A stretch of 62,445 bases of DNA, the filler included, from Globobulimina sp. (lineage: Eukaryota), in the NCBI GenBank assembly GCA_003354225.1. It is 26 parts of 26 records of this genome, joined end to end, with 100 filler letters (N's around TTAATTAATTAA, not from the genome) between each part and the next. Parts side by side here need not be neighbours in the genome. Positions count along the whole stretch, not along the records: positions 50,526 to 52,829 come from PIVH01007507.1; 25 more parts are not named here. One strand, 5' to 3'. Both the position numbers and the translations under genes were made by a program. The notes beneath the pieces are model-generated. The model had not been told where the DNA came from, made no database searches, and worked only from the letters and a program-made list of their open reading frames with translations. This document shows positions 1,725 through 52,929 of the stretch, one piece after another (position 1 is the stretch's first letter; each line of letters opens with the position of its first letter).

Positions 1725-2279
1725 TTATTGTGGCAATACAGGATTTTGAACAATCTGCACCAGATCATTCGCTGCAAACAAATTTGCAACAAATAAAACA
1801 CCATTTGCAACATTCATATACGTCGTTAAATTCAATTCTTTGTGGACTCGTGTTCCATTGCTATAAAATGCAATAGTCGCCGTATTATTATCATTATTTA
1901 ATTTGACTTTAATTTGACTAAAACACCACGCAGCACTCCACCCTTCATTTCATGAACTTCTATACAAATGTCCATTTACACCATATAACGAACAACCAGA
2001 CACAACAGCGTGACCAGGATAAGGAACCATTTTAAATGGTTTTGCTTCTGTCACACCAATCATTATTTGCCTATTCCCATGTGAACATATATGAAATTCA
2101 ACATATCTTTGTACAGTGCCATGCTTAGGCATCTCTAATGCTTCATAAACCGGCATTGATACGTGTATGGATACATTCAAATTTGACAGAGTGGCCAGTT
2201 TGGATTGCATTAATGGAAAAATTGTATTGCATAAATTTGGCACAAATGAAATATGGATGGAGTGGAGCAAAGGAGACAT
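1725..2279 (-). pseudogene. SPRY/B30.2-like domain ORF interrupted by one in-frame TGA (1950-1952)
   Basis: YVEFHI..QIMIGV..GCSLYGVNGHLY, then the same frame continues NEGWSAAWCFSQIKVKL..TIAFYSNG..FVANLFAANDLVQIV to TAA at 1725. Confidence 0.55.
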
Positions 2280-2307
2280 TTTAGGGATTGGAGAAATTTA
2301 TAATGAA

Positions 2308-2407
2308 NNNNNNNNNNNNNNNNNNNNNNNNNNNNNNNNNNNNNNNNNNNNTTAATTAATTAANNNNNNNNNNNNNNNNNNNNNNNNNNNNNNNNNNNNN
2401 NNNNNNN
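2308..2407. other. Artificial contig spacer N44-TTAATTAATTAA-N44 (first of 25; the others start at 4715, 7122, 9529, 11936, 14343, 16749, 19155, 21561, 23967, 26373, 28779, 31185, 33591, 35996, 38401, 40806, 43211, 45616, 48021, 50426, 52830, 55234, 57638, 60042)
   Basis: Identical 100-nt block with stops in all six frames recurs about every 2.4 kb; the intervening contig lengths never increase (2307 down to 2304). Confidence 0.99.
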
Positions 2408-2588
2408 GGGTGAGATTCGGTATCTCCCCTCCAAAAACCGACCTATGATTACCCGCGCCGAATAGCCAATATTTAGCACCACCGTAACCTGTCCAAGCCC
2501 CTCCCACGAGGTTCAAGAAATGCCCGCCATGCCTTCAAATCAGCATCAACCAACACCCAGGCGCTCTCAGTGGCCAACACACCATGCA

Positions 2589-2768
2589 ATGGCCACGAAA
2601 CTCTTCTTGGCCGGGGCCTGCCTCACGCTCGTCCTCCTCGCCGCCGGCTGCCAGGAAAAAGTCGTCGCCCGCAGCGGCATCGGCGCCGATGAAACCAACC
2701 CCAATGTCAGCGAACGCGAAGATTCCGATCGCCTCAGTGATTACATCTGGGGTGATAAGAAAAAATAA
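2589..2768 (+). CDS. Small bacterial lipoprotein
   Basis: MATKLFLAGACLTLVLLAAG-C signal peptide with lipobox; lies in a GC-rich, C-ending-codon segment. Confidence 0.7.
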   Translation: MATKLFLAGACLTLVLLAAGCQEKVVARSGIGADETNPNVSEREDSDRLSDYIWGDKKK

Positions 2769-2836
2769 CCCCCGCATCACCAACCCCCGACAACCAATCG
2801 CATAACAACCGCAAGCAATCTTAGAAAGTCAAAAGC

Positions 2837-3406
2837 ATGGGCATCGAACTGGCACTACCAGCCGACACCTTCCTCACCACCAAAATCCAAAGCCTCATCA
2901 ACTGGGGGCGCCGCAGCTCAATCTGGCCCATGCCCTTCGCCACCGCCTGCTGCGGCATCGAACTCATGGCCACCGCCTCCAGCCGCTACGACCTTGCACG
3001 CTTCGGTGCCGAAGTCATGCGCTTCAGCCCACGGCAATCAGATCTCATGCTCGTGGCCGGCCGCGTCACCAACAAAATGCTCCCCGTCCTCCAACGCATC
3101 TATCTCCAAATGGCAGAACCCAAATGGGTCATCTCCATGGGTGCCTGCGCCTCCACCGGCGGCGTCTTCGACACCTACGCAGTCGTCCAAGGCATCGACC
3201 AATTCATCCCCGTTGATGTCTACGTCCCCGGCTGCCCACCCAGACCCGAAATGCTCATCGAAGGCGTCATGGCCATCCAACGCATCATCGACCAGGACCG
3301 CATCCCACCCAAAGGATCGGACGGCAAACGCGTAGGCCTCGGCTTAGCCATTGAGCCCAATTATTCACCACAATCAGTTCCATTTGAACCACCATGGCCC
3401 GCGTGA
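2837..3406 (+). CDS. nuoB: Bacterial NADH-quinone oxidoreductase subunit B (the last ~15 codons probably come from the chimeric eukaryotic segment)
   Basis: [24 protein letters not shown] and [14 protein letters not shown]2 cluster motifs. Confidence 0.97.
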
Positions 3407-4714
3407 ATGAATTAAAGTTATTATCATAGTAATACGTACTGTAGATACTGCACCAAAATGGTACTTGTAAAGGATCATTGCTTGCAGTGTTTTGACACAA
3501 TTCCCGTACAACTGTTTGATTGATTACATTGTCGAATAGTTCCATGCCTACAATTGCATAAATATAAGCAATACAAAATTCCAATATAAACAATGAACGA
3601 AAAGATGATAACACCGCTTTGGAGGTTCTTAATATAACTCGAAAGCGAGTAAAAGCCCGCAATAACCGCAATAAACGAATAATACGAAAGATAATTATTA
3701 TTTTAATTGTATTTTGCAACAATTCTTCAAATAGAAAAGCAACAATAGATAATATAAAATCTAATTTATTGAAGTTATCCGCCAAATAACCACGAACACC
3801 AAACGCAATCATTTTGAATATAACTTCAAATAAAAACGCATATAAAATAATATCTGCACACCATTGAATGCGCGACGATAAATGATAGATATCCAAAATC
3901 ACAAAAACAGTGCTAAACATTACTAATAAGTTAATAAAATATTCAGTGGAGATTTCAAACGAGGAACATTGAGTTATCACATCCTCAGACCACGTCGAAT
4001 GTTTTTTATATACTGAGGATCTCGGCGATGATGGACTGCTATTAATGTCATGTCGAAATATGGAATCTATGGTCATTGACATTCTATGAGCATGTCCTCG
4101 AAACTTATCATTTGTTTCTTTTTTGCAACAAACAAATTCTTTCCGCCACTGCCAAAAACTAATCAATTTTAATCGAAATTGATACCAATAAATTGGTATT
4201 GAGTTCACTTTTGTCATTAAATTATAAGACGATCTGTTCAATATATTCTCTTTTTTATTATCTTCCTGTCCTATGATTAATAGATTTCGCTGCGTTTGGA
4301 ATTGTTTTGTTTTTTTTAACACCGAAATACGTTTTGCTTTTGCAATATCTTTTGTTATTTCTAACTCTATGAAAGCAGCAATTTGTAGGAACTGTTTCTT
4401 ATCCAAACCATTGTCATAATCCCTTTTCTCCTCATCAGTCAACTCATTGCCGTATGATAACACATTCGCCATTGCCAAATACATCCATTTTATTTGTTCT
4501 TCAACGGCACTTTCATTGTTTCCAAAAGTTGAATATAAATCTTTTCGCATTTTTTTCATAATCTGCGTGAACGTTGACAAATAGACAACTTTTTTATATT
4601 TATCTTTGCTCCGTTTTTTGGGTAACTTTTTCTTGACATTTTTGCCTTTGTTACTGTTTTGATGATACGTCAACACTTTGAATGCTTCTTTGATAGCTCG
4701 TTCACGAACGTTTT
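3357..4714 (-). CDS. Two-pore / voltage-gated cation channel fragment (linker plus second 6TM domain), truncated at both ends
   Basis: [25 protein letters not shown]4 [11 protein letters not shown], pore [21 protein letters not shown] (TPC-type VVNNW filter); frame open to the contig end. Confidence 0.85.
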
Positions 4715-36655: not shown

Positions 36656-38400
36656 CTATTGGACAAAATGCGAGAATGCCCTGTGGGATAATCCTTTTGT
36701 TAGGTTGACCCTGTTGTCCTTAGAATCAATCAAAATGCCCTCTTTTGCCAGGAGATGTGAAGGCCGGTTTTCTTTTGTCTTGATTTGAATGGAATCAGCA
36801 TTGAATTTATGGGCACGATTACCATTTTCAAGAGTGCAGAAATATCCAAAATTGTGACCAGATTGAGCCATATGAGCATAGAGTGCATTACTTTCTTTTT
36901 CTTTTAAAATCGCATCTGAGTGTTCTTTCAGGCGAATGCGCAGATTTCTTTCAGTTTTCCCAATATAAACCTTATTACAGTCCGAACATTTAATCTGATA
37001 CACCACATTTTTCTCATCATAGAAGTCACATTCAGGAGAATTCTTGGACAAAAGCTGACCCAAAGTACAACATTTCTTGAAAAATACTTGAATATTGAAT
37101 CGGTTGAGAAATAACCTAATCTGTTGAGATAGCTTAGGAACATATGGAAGACCAATTTTTGGGGCCTTTTCATCTAAAGGTTTTCGTTTTGCGCCAATTG
37201 GGTCAAGCTTTGACTGGATAAGAGCAGATGGAAACCCACAATTTTGAAATGCCAAACTTAGATTTTCTTTTTCTTCTATGAGTATCTGATGAGTAGATGA
37301 AATTTGATGAGCCCTTCTGGCTAAACAATGAATTGTGCCAACCTTTTGATTGATTGGTTGACAAGAGTTAAAATGGATGTATCGATTGGAATGGGTAGGT
37401 TTTCGATAAACTTTAATCAAAAGGCCATTAGTTTCGCGATAAAGATCACAATCTAAGAAGGGCAGTCTCTTATTGTCTTCAAATTCGGCCTTAAAATGTA
37501 TTCTTTTTAAATGATCATGAAGATTGAACTGTTCAAAAATTGTCCTCAGTTCATCAATGTTTTCAGCCAACAAAAATATATCATCCACATAACGTGCATA
37601 ATATAGGAGAGAAGTGTTTGTCATCAAAGCCTCATGTTCAAACTCTTCCATGAATAGACCTGCAAGAAAACCAGATAAGGGAGATCCCATCGGCAATCCA
37701 TATGTTTGCTTGTAATAATTTCCATTAAAAGTAAATAGTGTTGCTTCGATACAAATTTGAACAAATCCAACAATTCGACATGCCCGCAACATGGTCTTAT
37801 GATTCCATAAATCAGAATTTTCTTTCAAACGACGTTTTAAAATTTTAATTGCTGTAGGCACATGGACATTGGAAAAAAGTGAGTCAACATCAAATGAAGC
37901 CATACATGTATTTGACCAATCAACTTTAAGGGATTGCAGCTGGGAAATAAAAGATGAGGTGTCTTTAAGATGAGTGGGACGAATACCAAGAAGGGGACTT
38001 AAGATTGTAGCTAAATGAGATGCCAATGGGTGAAAATATGAACCAACACAGCTAACAATAGGTCGAAGTGGACAATTTTCTTTGTGGATTTTGGGTAAAC
38101 CATAGAAATAGGGAGTTTTAGATCGATCAACAGATGGCAAAAGATAATAACGTCTTTCTTTCTTAATTTCCCTGTTGCTGATTGCAACATCCATAAGTAA
38201 TAGCAAATTTTCTCTATTTTTCTTCTGTTGCTTAACAAAATCAACTCGTGAGAGAAGTTCGTATGTTTGCACATCTGAGAGAATATGTTCACATTTGTTA
38301 ATGTATGATTCTGGATCCATCAAAACCGTTTTTTCCCCTTTGTCTGCTTTCATAATTTTAATTTTCTTCTCCTTTACATCTTTCTGTAATGTTTTCACAG
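36656..38400 (-). mobile_element. Penelope-like retroelement ORF: reverse transcriptase + GIY-YIG endonuclease (5' truncated)
   Basis: KADKG, YGLPKIHK..PLRPIVS, SFDVDSLF, GLPMGSPLS, RYVDD, YRKPTH, VVYQIKCSDCNKVYIGKT. Confidence 0.97.
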
Positions 38401-50525: not shown

Positions 50526-50768
50526 AAGTTGTGGGCCCATCTTAAACTTTCGCATTCTAGCATAATTAATTGTTAATAATTTGTTTGTCTTTTTAACTTT
50601 AATGTTTCCTAATGATGATACTTCATATCGTAAAAAGTCGGGAGCATCAATCCATTGTTCTGTTTCAGTTGATGTGTATCTTGACAATTGTGATATTAAT
50701 GATTGATTCAAGCACCTATGTCTAACTAGCACAAAAGCAAGCATCTCAAGCTGGAATTGTTTCAACAT
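50526..50768 (-). CDS. NUMOD4-motif protein (HNH endonuclease-associated) N-terminus with a presequence-like leader; 3' truncated
   Basis: EQWIDAPDFLRYEVSSLGNIKVKKTNKLL matches the NUMOD4 W..ipg...YeVSnlGrv pattern. Confidence 0.65.
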
Positions 50769-50829
50769 GGCCTCATGCTTACTGTTCCGCACAAGTCGCA
50801 GTCTCAACTCATACATAAATCACTATTCA

Positions 50830-52654
50830 ATGTACTCATCGTACATTACCAATTCACTCCGAAATTGCACGATATTATCGACACCAAAATCACCAAACAA
50901 CTCATCAGCAACAGATAACCCTTCAGCAAGTAATATCACAGACAGATTAACCGGAACATCATCTCATTCATTTATAGACATAATGAACCCATCGCGTGTT
51001 GGTAAAGTCACAGACATAACAAATACAATAGCCACCATTGACGGGTTCACCTCCGCCAAACCATACAGCATAGTTGAATTTGATAACGGTGTTCGAGGAC
51101 TGGTACTTAATGTATATTCATATGGGTGTAAAATTGGTATAATTGACAATGCAAAGCATAACAACAAATTATTAAAAGTATCCGATATGATCCGATTGGA
51201 TAAAATTGAAAATATTGACATGAAATCACCAGCCACTGTTGTTGGACCAGGAATACTCGGCCGTATTGTTGATGTATTTGGTAATGACTTTACTGACGAA
51301 CCAAATGACAACAATAAAAATGAGAAATATGTACTACCAATTTATAACGTAAATTTATTTCCAAATTCTAAATATATAACACATTGGAATACCTATTCTC
51401 GTGTCAGACAACGCATTCATACCGGAATCAAATCCATTGATACGTTTTATCCCTTTGCCTATGGATTAAAAACCGCTATTATCGGTACAAATATCCATAG
51501 AAAATCCGAATTAGCCATTGATATCTTATTAAGTTTTGTAAATCATAACCAATCAACAGAAAACATGCGAGAAAGTTATGTTTTTATGTGTGAAATTTCT
51601 TGAAAATGATTGCAATGTTTTTCAAATTTCAAATTATAACACAGAAATGTTTGGTATTTATGTGATGATTGGTAAGCCCGTCGAGGAAATATGGCGATTA
51701 TACAACATATTGGCAGAGAACGGAGCATTGGAATATTGCACCATTGTCGTGTCACGTAATGATGATTTGTTATGTAAACAGTTACTGACACCATACAGTG
51801 GAGCAGCAATGGCTGATTTTTATAAGTTTTATGGCATGAATAGCTTCATCATTTACGATGATTTCACAGTGCATAATCGGATATGCAATGCTGTATATTG
51901 TGAATCATTGGGATTGATGAATTATGGCAATTGGAGTGGCGAGTTATTGGAGAGATCGTCACAACTAAATAGCAAATATGGCAATGGGTCATTAACGTCG
52001 CTGTGTATTGCAGATAGAGGGAAGACCGCAGCAGTTGGAGATGATGAAATATTTTATAATTATTTGCCGTATTTAATGAGCCACGTTGACCAACATATTA
52101 TGCTTTGCGATGAATCATTTAATAACAATTTATTGCCGCCAATATCGCTATTTCCAGTGCCTTATGGACATATAAAAAATATACAAAAGAATGAAGTATT
52201 ATTGAAGTTGTCAGTAAATGTGAAAAGAATATTATTTCAATTTGTGGAGTTAGAGAGTGTGGCTAGAAACCAGATGGAGTTAAACATTGATTTGGAAGGA
52301 GATATTGAACGCATTGCGTCAAAAGTAAACAAATTGCAAGTGTTATTCACACAAAATGAAGAGATTGATGTCAATAAATTAATATTAATATTATTATCTA
52401 TCAATCATAAAATTGTTGAATATATTCATTTGGATAAAATACATTTATTTGAGAACAGATTATACGAATATTTTATTCCAAACAATAGTAAAAAATGGGA
52501 AAATGTTTGTGAGGAAATTGAAAAAATGGGGAATAAATATGACATTGATAATGCTGATATCGGTCATATGTTTCATGAATTTTTAGATGATAATCATGAC
52601 CTATGCCAACCAAATGCTTTGAGTCTACAAAATCTGCATACAGAACAATCATAA
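50830..52654 (+). CDS. Divergent nuclear F1-ATP synthase alpha-subunit paralog; intron 51575-51644
   Basis: VEFDNGVRGLVLN, VGPGILGRIVDVFG, TGIKSIDTFYP, IYVMIG, GALEYCTIV, LTPYSGAAMADFY, IIYDD, LLERS..GSLTSL. Confidence 0.88.
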
Positions 52655-52929
52655 ATTACAAATCAACATTTATGTTTTTGCTTAATATTCTGACAATTAT
52701 ATCAGTTTATAATAACGATGAAGTGAGTTTGTAAGGATGCTAAGACGTCGATTTCATCTCTGCGAGGTAAGTAACAAAAACGTTCACCCTATAATACGAA
52801 CATGGCCACTGTATTTGAAGTGTCTAATCNNNNNNNNNNNNNNNNNNNNNNNNNNNNNNNNNNNNNNNNNNNNTTAATTAATTAANNNNNNNNNNNNNNN
52901 NNNNNNNNNNNNNNNNNNNNNNNNNNNNN

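Follow-up and report, generated by a model that had tools for sequence, protein, structure and literature searches.

The F1 head is regarded as among the most conserved of eukaryotic machines. Inert look-alikes of its alpha subunit, present beside the real subunit, were first described in July 2026 and, in the parts of that preprint available to us, from microalgae only (bioRxiv 10.64898/2026.07.08.737214, the source for all statements on xATPA below). These proteins, named xATPA, are divergent F-type alpha homologues with 222 members, reported from Chlorophyta (Chlamydomonas ATP1B), euglenophytes, dinoflagellates, haptophytes, chlorarachniophytes, cryptophytes, several heterokont algae and some labyrinthulomycetes, and 'never detected' in oomycetes according to the same available text. 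They have a mean mass of 70 kDa and an N-terminal targeting sequence. A 'bump' of about 60 residues, sited at a fixed point of the central domain and lacking in canonical alpha, served as the criterion for inclusion; their P-loop is not consistent, and an ATP-contacting arginine is well conserved in all of them (Fig 4C of the preprint). The diatom protein is plastidial, has a beta affinity five-fold below that of alpha, pulls down both beta and gamma, and is unlike alpha in an ATP1-lacking yeast strain, and the roles proposed for xATPA match those suggested for the present gene in its initial annotation (assembly factor, inhibitor or part of a mixed F1 head). Here we describe an F1-alpha-like gene at positions 50767-52654 of a 62,445-nucleotide stretch of DNA from Globobulimina sp. 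(GenBank assembly GCA_003354225.1), hereafter the window, and compare it with xATPA and with other members of the alpha/beta family.

We lean towards the view that this gene encodes a nuclear, organelle-targeted pseudo-subunit derived from F1 alpha, most likely mitochondrial, that works beside a canonical alpha. A literature search for alpha paralogues with lost motifs returned none besides the xATPA preprint and one citation of it, and the available parts of papers on the Acanthamoeba ATP synthase and on the mitochondrial type II secretion system mention no such alpha-like protein.

Results

The window consists of 26 pieces of about 2.3 kb each, ordered by falling length and separated by 25 linkers of the form N44-TTAATTAATTAA-N44, with a G+C content of about 32% throughout. 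The alpha-like gene lies by itself on the piece at 50526-52829, so that what flanks it in the window does not reflect its genomic surroundings, and any adjacency across a linker is artificial. Two open frames, at 50707-51603 and 51542-52654, are bridged by a 70-nt GT..AG intron to give a two-exon gene running from an ATG at 50767 to a TAA stop at 52652-52654, with a product of 605 residues and 69.0 kDa. Contigs from all four runs (three studies) skip precisely 51575-51644, joining 51574 to 51645, and the residues across this junction (...MRE-K-MFG...) are identical in the full-length orthologues P0006 and P0008. The contig from run X2 is 1891 nt long and covers 50751-52693 with 7 differences, while that from run X7 is 1886 nt long and covers 50763-52680 with 81; the same sequence is present in runs from four studies. 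Adapter sequence terminates the contigs 16-39 nt from the coding region. The simplest reading is that the contigs are spliced mRNA with very short untranslated regions (UTRs), the kind of the runs that gave them being unrecorded or guessed as RNA.

The initial annotation had placed the start at 50830, which proved wrong: the frame opens 63 nt further upstream, at 50767, which we take as the start because it is the first ATG within the transcript contigs, these beginning at 50751 and 50763. Its description of a full-length, intron-containing alpha-like frame is otherwise borne out by the single intron, spliced in the contigs, and the 605 open codons, and the claim that the gene is nuclear is backed by the spliceosomal-type GT..AG intron that the contigs lack.

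Comparison of the window with the contigs of close relatives, over the 40 differences listed out of 100, gave 32 synonymous and 8 non-synonymous changes, with 31 at third codon positions and a ratio of non-synonymous to synonymous change (pN/pS) of about 0.064. The orthologue search (28 proteins at E <=1e-3 among 1135 candidates) yielded ten database orthologues with 55-73% identity over exon 2, followed by canonical alphas at 24-29%; there was no close orthologue among NCBI-annotated genomes. The transcripts, the low pN/pS and the orthologues contradict neutral decay, and the gene is functional rather than a decaying copy.

Both exons find F1 alpha when compared with the PDB. With exon 2, alpha subunits filled all of the best 60 rows (best E 2e-17). 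With exon 1, the best match was the yeast mitochondrial alpha at 1.2e-11; most bacterial alphas fell at about 1e-6 to 1e-4, chloroplast alpha at 0.048, and beta chains at E >=0.01. By Pfam, exon 2 scored 53.5 bits for PF00006, above the cut-off of 29.5, and 24.5 bits for PF00306, under the cut-off of 27; the scan did not detect PF02874, the N-terminal barrel family. On this sequence evidence the product is an F1-alpha homologue, nearer to alpha than to beta. An AlphaFold2 model of the orthologue P0006, built from a 50-row alignment, reached a predicted local distance difference test score (pLDDT) of 80.5 and a predicted template modelling score of 0.81, with disorder at residues 1-64 (pLDDT <50), 168-182 and 613-626. 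Foldseek matched this model best to mitochondrial F1 alpha chains, with target-normalised template modelling (TM) scores of about 0.8 at 20-24% identity, and the three-domain alpha fold is, as modelled, retained.

The four substitutions quoted in the initial annotation (GTNIHRKS for Walker A, YDDFTVHN for the Walker B region, ESLGLMNYGNW for the PPGREAYP loop and FPVPYG for the arginine-finger segment) are all literally present in our alignments. To speak of a lost P-loop is nevertheless too strong: GxxxxGK[ST] has another residue here for its second glycine, but its Lys-Ser pair is kept. Both this pair and the first Walker B Asp are retained in all six aligned rows of the window's clade, in which the second glycine has become R, K or P, or remains G in one member with a one-residue insertion. 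At the PPGREAYP loop, ESLGLMNYGNW stands in its place with a net deletion. The finger segment reads FPVPYGHIKN and contains no Arg. Its alignment is not fixed to the residue: HMMER places a His at the finger position, whereas MAFFT sets Lys447 (P-K-F here, S-R-F in related alpha-like proteins) opposite the conserved Arg of those relatives, and Arg is absent under both. In more distant clade members the position is occupied by Ala, Lys or Arg, the distant full-length members P0150-P0152 having Ala or Lys.

Within the close family these altered elements do not drift. YGNWSGEL is invariant in nine of nine members, as are PVPYG, the Lys that follows it, and DD..HN. The rewritten motifs are the best conserved parts of the protein, which argues for a new constraint rather than relaxation. 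Canonical-form binding of nucleotide or phosphate is unlikely to judge from these residues, and the earlier description of an intact but non-canonical pseudo-ATPase agrees with a gene that is spliced, transcribed and under purifying selection and whose orthologues share invariant rewritten motifs. The features of the locus are as follows.

50747-50766, plus strand: 5' UTR, about 16-20 nt (X2 contig starts at 50751; X6 and X7 contigs fit from 50763)
50767-51574, plus strand: exon 1, codons 1-269 and the first base of codon 270 (transcript contigs, PDB matches), holding the leader, the beta-barrel crown domain, the insert and the start of the nucleotide-binding domain
50767-50960, plus strand: N-terminal leader of about 65 residues, basic and Ser/Thr-rich (composition count, alignment)
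51292-51405, plus strand: segment between the crown and the nucleotide-binding domain, with the clade-specific insert (insertion table against 12 canonical alphas)
51484-51507, plus strand: degenerate Walker A, GTNIHRKS, residues 240-247, canonically GDRQTGKT (alignments)
51575-51644, plus strand: intron, 70 nt, GT..AG, phase 1 (contig joints; junction residues of P0006 and P0008)
51645-52654, plus strand: exon 2, with the remaining nucleotide-binding domain, the helical C-terminal domain, the C-terminal extension and the stop
51854-51877, plus strand: Walker B region YDDFTVHN, canonically YDDLSKQA, followed by a three-residue deletion (alignments)
51902-51955, plus strand: rewritten, shortened PPGREAYP loop, ESLGLMNYGNWSGELLER (alignments)
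52136-52180, plus strand: PPISLFPVPYGHIKN, replacing the arginine-finger segment SVSRVG (alignments)
52283-52312, plus strand: site of the four-residue insertion common to alpha-like proteins (insertion table, alignment)
52598-52651, plus strand: C-terminal extension past canonical alpha, DLCQPN... (orthologue alignment)
52655-52693, plus strand: 3' UTR, 26-39 nt (contigs end at 52680 in X7 and 52693 in X2, then adapter)

The presequence-like, Ser/Thr-rich leader noted initially is confirmed by composition, with 4 basic, no acidic and 14 Ser/Thr residues among the first 45; most relatives are alike in this, and the alignment reveals a leader motif, R-x-C-T-I-L, common to the orthologues. The counterpart of the leader in P0006 (residues 1-64) is disordered in the model. 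Such a leader most likely sends the protein to mitochondria. The clade-specific insert comprises 16 residues in the window protein and 19-21 in P0006 and P0008, making it the largest among the alpha-like rows, and its counterpart in P0006 (residues 168-182) is disordered in the model. At the other end, the window protein stops three residues short of the EFY/QFY terminus of its orthologues.

A tree of 68 rows and 516 columns was built by IQ-TREE quick search under LG+C20+F+G4 by posterior mean site frequencies (PMSF); it is unrooted, contains no beta, and represents mitochondria by two plant-mitochondrial rows. A single branch with a Shimodaira-Hasegawa-like approximate likelihood ratio (SH-aLRT) of 100 splits all 44 canonical alphas from all 24 alpha-like rows. 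The window's clade of six rows has a support of 100 and is drawn, on long branches, as sister to six oomycete rows (SH-aLRT 90). Two rare changes point the same way. At one site in the C-terminal domain, every one of the 24 alpha-like rows has an insertion of 4-8 residues, which 10 of the 12 canonical rows lack, the two exceptions being rows whose sequence strays into unrelated text, and the PPGREAYP loop is shortened in all 24 alpha-like rows. Independently of branch lengths, these changes support a common descent of the alpha-like proteins.

The family extends well beyond the close orthologues. A phmmer search with P0006 against 1.84 billion representatives returned 1353 proteins at E <=1e-3 and 11 at <=1e-30. 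Three of its matches (P0150, P0151 and P0152) are full-length at 33-36% identity and E 1e-62 to 1e-74, far stronger than the canonical alphas at about 1e-26, and carry YGNW..LLER, PVPF and a degenerate P-loop terminating in K-S. In a second, diverse alpha-like set (P0155, P0156, P0172, P0175 and others) the leaders are basic and the PPGREAYP loop is missing; most of its members have a Walker A, and many have an Arg in the finger segment. A regex screen of P0149-P0296 found P.GREA.PGD in none of the proteins classed as alpha-like. The distant, AT-rich, canonical-type alphas P0166 and P0179 also lack the PPGREAYP loop, one of them having GDRQTGKT and SVSRVG, so loss of that loop alone is not confined to the alpha-like group.

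The second alpha-like set includes P0245 from the oomycete Achlya hypogyna, with orthologues in Saprolegnia, Thraustotheca, Aphanomyces, Phytophthora, Pythium, Peronospora, Bremia and Peronosclerospora (P0297-P0337). These genes lie on contigs of 2.4-13 Mb (Aphanomyces, Phytophthora and others), are annotated either as hypothetical or as 'ATPase F1/V1/A1 complex alpha/beta subunit nucleotide-binding domain-containing protein', and encode proteins without a bump of about 60 residues (insertion table); no characterization of them was found in the literature searched. The mitochondrial DNA of Aphanomyces encodes atp1, according to the part of the source available (PMC5093560, Table 1). With a nuclear alpha-like gene and a mitochondrial atp1, the oomycete alpha-like gene is a true paralogue beside canonical alpha. 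From its place in the alpha-like group and from this coexistence, we infer that the window gene is likewise a paralogue in its own organism.

In an unaligned Atlas feature search, P0006 scored 0.95 with its nearest cluster, which was also the nearest to the alpha-like protein P0231 (0.96), while canonical clusters scored 0.94-0.95. The nearest cluster is eukaryote-only and mainly chlorophyte, with alpha-like proteins of 728 residues, and is treated here as a lead only. Among metagenome contigs of the Joint Genome Institute, 294 pattern matches gave no confirmed case.

Several further observations concern the surroundings of the gene. The contigs of runs X6 and X7 start with a 15-nt leader that, compared by eye, is a diverged copy of 50747-50762; as that stretch is genomic 5' UTR, the idea of a spliced leader as the source of this loose 5' end was dropped. 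A minus-strand open reading frame (ORF) at 50529-50819, head-to-head with the alpha-like gene, has a NUMOD4 motif (PF07463, 29 bits, cut-off 23.4), and a separate X2 contig of 1061 nt covers 50527-50726 and continues beyond the piece. These two transcripts would begin no more than about 25 nt apart, a sign of a very compact genome. On the plus strand at 52738-52770, about 45 nt past the transcript end, an ATG opens a short frame (M-L-R-R-R-F-H-L-C-E) that closes at GTAAGT, as if the next gene began there with a basic leader and an early intron.

Elsewhere in the window, the pieces carry long, Asn-rich ORFs almost without introns, and Pfam identified a trypsin-like protease, a caspase-family peptidase and ion channel ORFs. 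A desaturase on another piece matched a EukProt protein best, at 75%, while its named matches, in fungi, reached 54% at most. A G+C-richer stretch (0.436 in 2001-4000) contains a complex I 20-kDa subunit at 2825-3403, plus strand (PF01058, 102.5 bits), overlapping the end of an AT-rich ion-transport ORF at 3288-4712, minus strand (PF00520). The region 2825-4712 may come from a chimeric contig, or the two ORFs may truly overlap tail to tail, in which case the organism has complex I. The minus-strand ORF at 36659-38398 pairs a reverse transcriptase (PF00078) with a GIY-YIG domain (PF01541), the domain pair of Penelope-like retroelements. Rfam returned no match on the whole window.

Discussion

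The rewriting of this alpha-like protein, and the place of its group alongside canonical alpha, enable us to propose a model for its function. The protein is part of a eukaryote-only alpha-like group that sits alongside canonical alpha without replacing it, and the elements that serve alpha's own nucleotide and the activation of the neighbouring beta are recast in it as a new pattern under strict conservation. By analogy with xATPA, the protein would bind free beta (and gamma), or incomplete F1, through its retained alpha surfaces. Without an arginine finger, the interfaces it forms would be catalytically silent, and it could not complete a catalytic site. It is plausible, then, that it holds or regulates unassembled F1 parts in sub-stoichiometric amounts, or caps incomplete heads, rather than serving as a working stator. 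Its location and partners are inferred, as is the existence of a canonical alpha in this organism, the binding of partners resting on the xATPA analogy.

A number of points weigh against this proposal. The composition of the leader also fits a chloroplast transit peptide, so that the destination may be a plastid, and the retained Lys-Ser and Walker B Asp may still permit some binding of nucleotide or phosphate. A tree that sets the window's clade by the canonical alphas, away from the other alpha-likes, gains 7.09 log-likelihood units over the free quick tree with which it was compared (p-AU 0.62 in the approximately unbiased test); more than one branching order of the alpha-like groups thus fits the data, and since the separating tree is equal or better we do not claim sistership of the window's clade and the oomycete proteins. 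The cost of 63.9 log-likelihood units (p-AU 0.015) incurred by forcing the clade to join the plant-mitochondrial rows and the two nearest to them speaks for the proposal, but that group was picked after the tree was seen. Long-branch attraction alone could be pulling fast alpha copies together, and the tree tool issued a warning about the meeting of long branches. No other alpha/beta-family locus occurs in this 62-kb window of a fragmented assembly. Likeness to xATPA, moreover, is drawn from described properties and the feature search rather than from aligned, validated xATPA sequences, and of two features stated for all xATPA in the available text, the conserved arginine is missing here and a bump of about 60 residues was not found, the largest insert having 16-21.

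Among the alternatives, the gene might be a bona fide plastid-targeted xATPA of an alga, with the short insert as a reduced bump domain. Its product, at 69.0 kDa close to the xATPA mean of 70 kDa, has a degenerate P-loop and a Ser/Thr-rich N-terminal extension, all of which would suit such a protein, the nearest Atlas cluster is chlorophyte alpha-like, and the insert of 16-21 residues, unmatched in size among the alpha-like rows, lies between crown and P-loop, where the bump seems to be by the alignment columns of the preprint (929-1133, with the domain at 588-2171 and the arginine at 1804-1814). Those columns are, however, not readily matched with the bump at 444-499 of the P. tricornutum protein as given in the available text, and the insertion table contains no bump of about 60 residues. 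The arginine reported as conserved in all xATPA is Lys here, and Ala or Lys in P0150-P0152. Given also that the ORF listing of the 26 pieces, read by eye with few ORFs Pfam-scanned, includes no photosynthesis gene, and that a G-protein alpha-like ORF was seen by eye in the window, we regard this explanation as unlikely. It seems very improbable that the gene is instead the organism's only alpha, serving as a rapidly evolving stator in an ATP synthase that is modified or reduced. The lack of a canonical alpha in 62 kb of fragmented assembly is uninformative on this point, and the retained Walker A Lys-Ser and Walker B Asp would be compatible with it, but the close family has no finger arginine, the wider clade varies between K, A and R, and mutant work on E. 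coli F1 is reported to show that the finger arginine is required for steady-state catalysis. Furthermore, the oomycete alpha-like proteins coexist with canonical atp1, and, according to the abstract of a preprint (PMC13545225), F1 is conserved across eukaryotes bar euglenozoans.

Long branches in all alpha-like rows, with the warning from the tree tool, the mitochondrial best match of exon 1 (yeast, 1.2e-11) and the unsettled place of the window's clade relative to the other alpha-like groups would also fit a convergent offshoot from the mitochondrial alpha of one protist lineage, with no shared descent with xATPA or the oomycete proteins and grouped with them by long-branch attraction. We consider this improbable, because convergence would have to account for an insertion of 4-8 residues at the same site in every one of the 24 alpha-like rows, a shortening of the same loop, and further shared changes, among them a His after the Walker B DD-x-x and the absence of the Arg of G-I-R-P-A-I. 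The AU test, in which two plant-mitochondrial rows stood for mitochondria, likewise rejected joining the clade to that lineage (p-AU 0.015). Least credible, to a degree that leaves it almost no weight, is a decaying duplicate (a pseudogene in the making) or an assembly artefact. Near-invariant alpha motifs are indeed altered, and the orthologues have three further residues at the end, and a longer acidic insert, than the window copy. Against this stand the 605 open codons, exact splicing in four of four runs, a pN/pS of about 0.06, the presence of the same sequence in runs of four studies, and the fact that the altered motifs are the most conserved in the family.

If the gene does encode a pseudo-subunit as we propose, it adds to the inert alpha look-alikes another branch, one that has no arginine finger left and strictly conserves its new motifs, and whose nearest named relatives belong to non-photosynthetic oomycetes that still have a canonical atp1. 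Alpha-like paralogues are thus present in oomycetes, where the available text of the xATPA preprint reports none. More tentatively, and as a possibility we would not yet put at even chances, the gene would stand for a branch, so far undescribed and more degenerate, of an ancient family of alpha-like pseudo-subunits that is independent of plastids and works in mitochondria. Were this true, the gene together with those of oomycetes would mean that xATPA-type proteins did not originate with microalgae or plastids, but are a widespread eukaryotic F1 partner, a holder or regulator of unassembled beta and gamma, lost in animals, fungi and land plants. Their function would then lie in F1 biogenesis or regulation generally, mitochondria included, and oomycetes, or a culturable member of the clade, would offer test systems for the question left by the diatom work.

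Compared with the canonical mitochondrial F1 alpha (bovine and yeast; PDB 2jiz_A and 2hld_A), the window protein has the same three-domain fold (TM about 0.8) and shares the stretches LGR.VD, TGIK.ID, GALEY, LLER and GNGS.T.L. It differs in an identity of only about 22-24%, in the altered Walker A glycine, PPGREAYP loop and SVSRVG, and in the leader, inserts and C-terminal extension that it has beyond canonical alpha. The V-type ATPase B subunit and F1 alpha are both non-catalytic partners in alpha/beta-family hetero-hexamers that keep the fold and its interfaces. They are stoichiometric stator subunits that still give a finger to the catalytic neighbour; unlike these, the window protein has no Arg to give, and it probably does not serve as one of three stator copies.

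The oomycete proteins (Saprolegnia parasitica SPRG_09148, Aphanomyces invadans H310_04274 and P0245) fall on the same side of the tree as the window's clade and, like the window protein, have the four-residue insertion, a shortened PPGREAYP loop, a basic leader and PF00006 alone by Pfam. They are, however, only about 20% identical to the window's family, and they retain an intact Walker A (GPRGSGKT and similar) and a finger-segment Arg (SVRGPPF).

The closest parallel is xATPA itself (P. tricornutum B7FRE6; Chlamydomonas ATP1B, Cre10.g419050), as described in the available text. Like the window gene, it is nuclear, eukaryote-only, about 70 kDa and expressed, and the two have in common an N-terminal extension, the alpha fold, a P-loop that is not maintained and a position apart from mitochondrial, plastid and bacterial alphas. 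The differences are nonetheless distinct. Where xATPA keeps its arginine, the close family of the window protein has Lys in nine of nine members; the bump of xATPA has about 60 residues, whereas the largest insert of the window's clade, between crown and P-loop, has 16-21, the site of the bump being mapped without certainty; and xATPA is tied to microalgae and plastids, whereas the window gene belongs to an AT-rich, intron-poor organism and has a mitochondrial-looking leader. The window gene probably belongs with the xATPA-type kind, as a distinct and more degenerate variant, and probably in a heterotroph.

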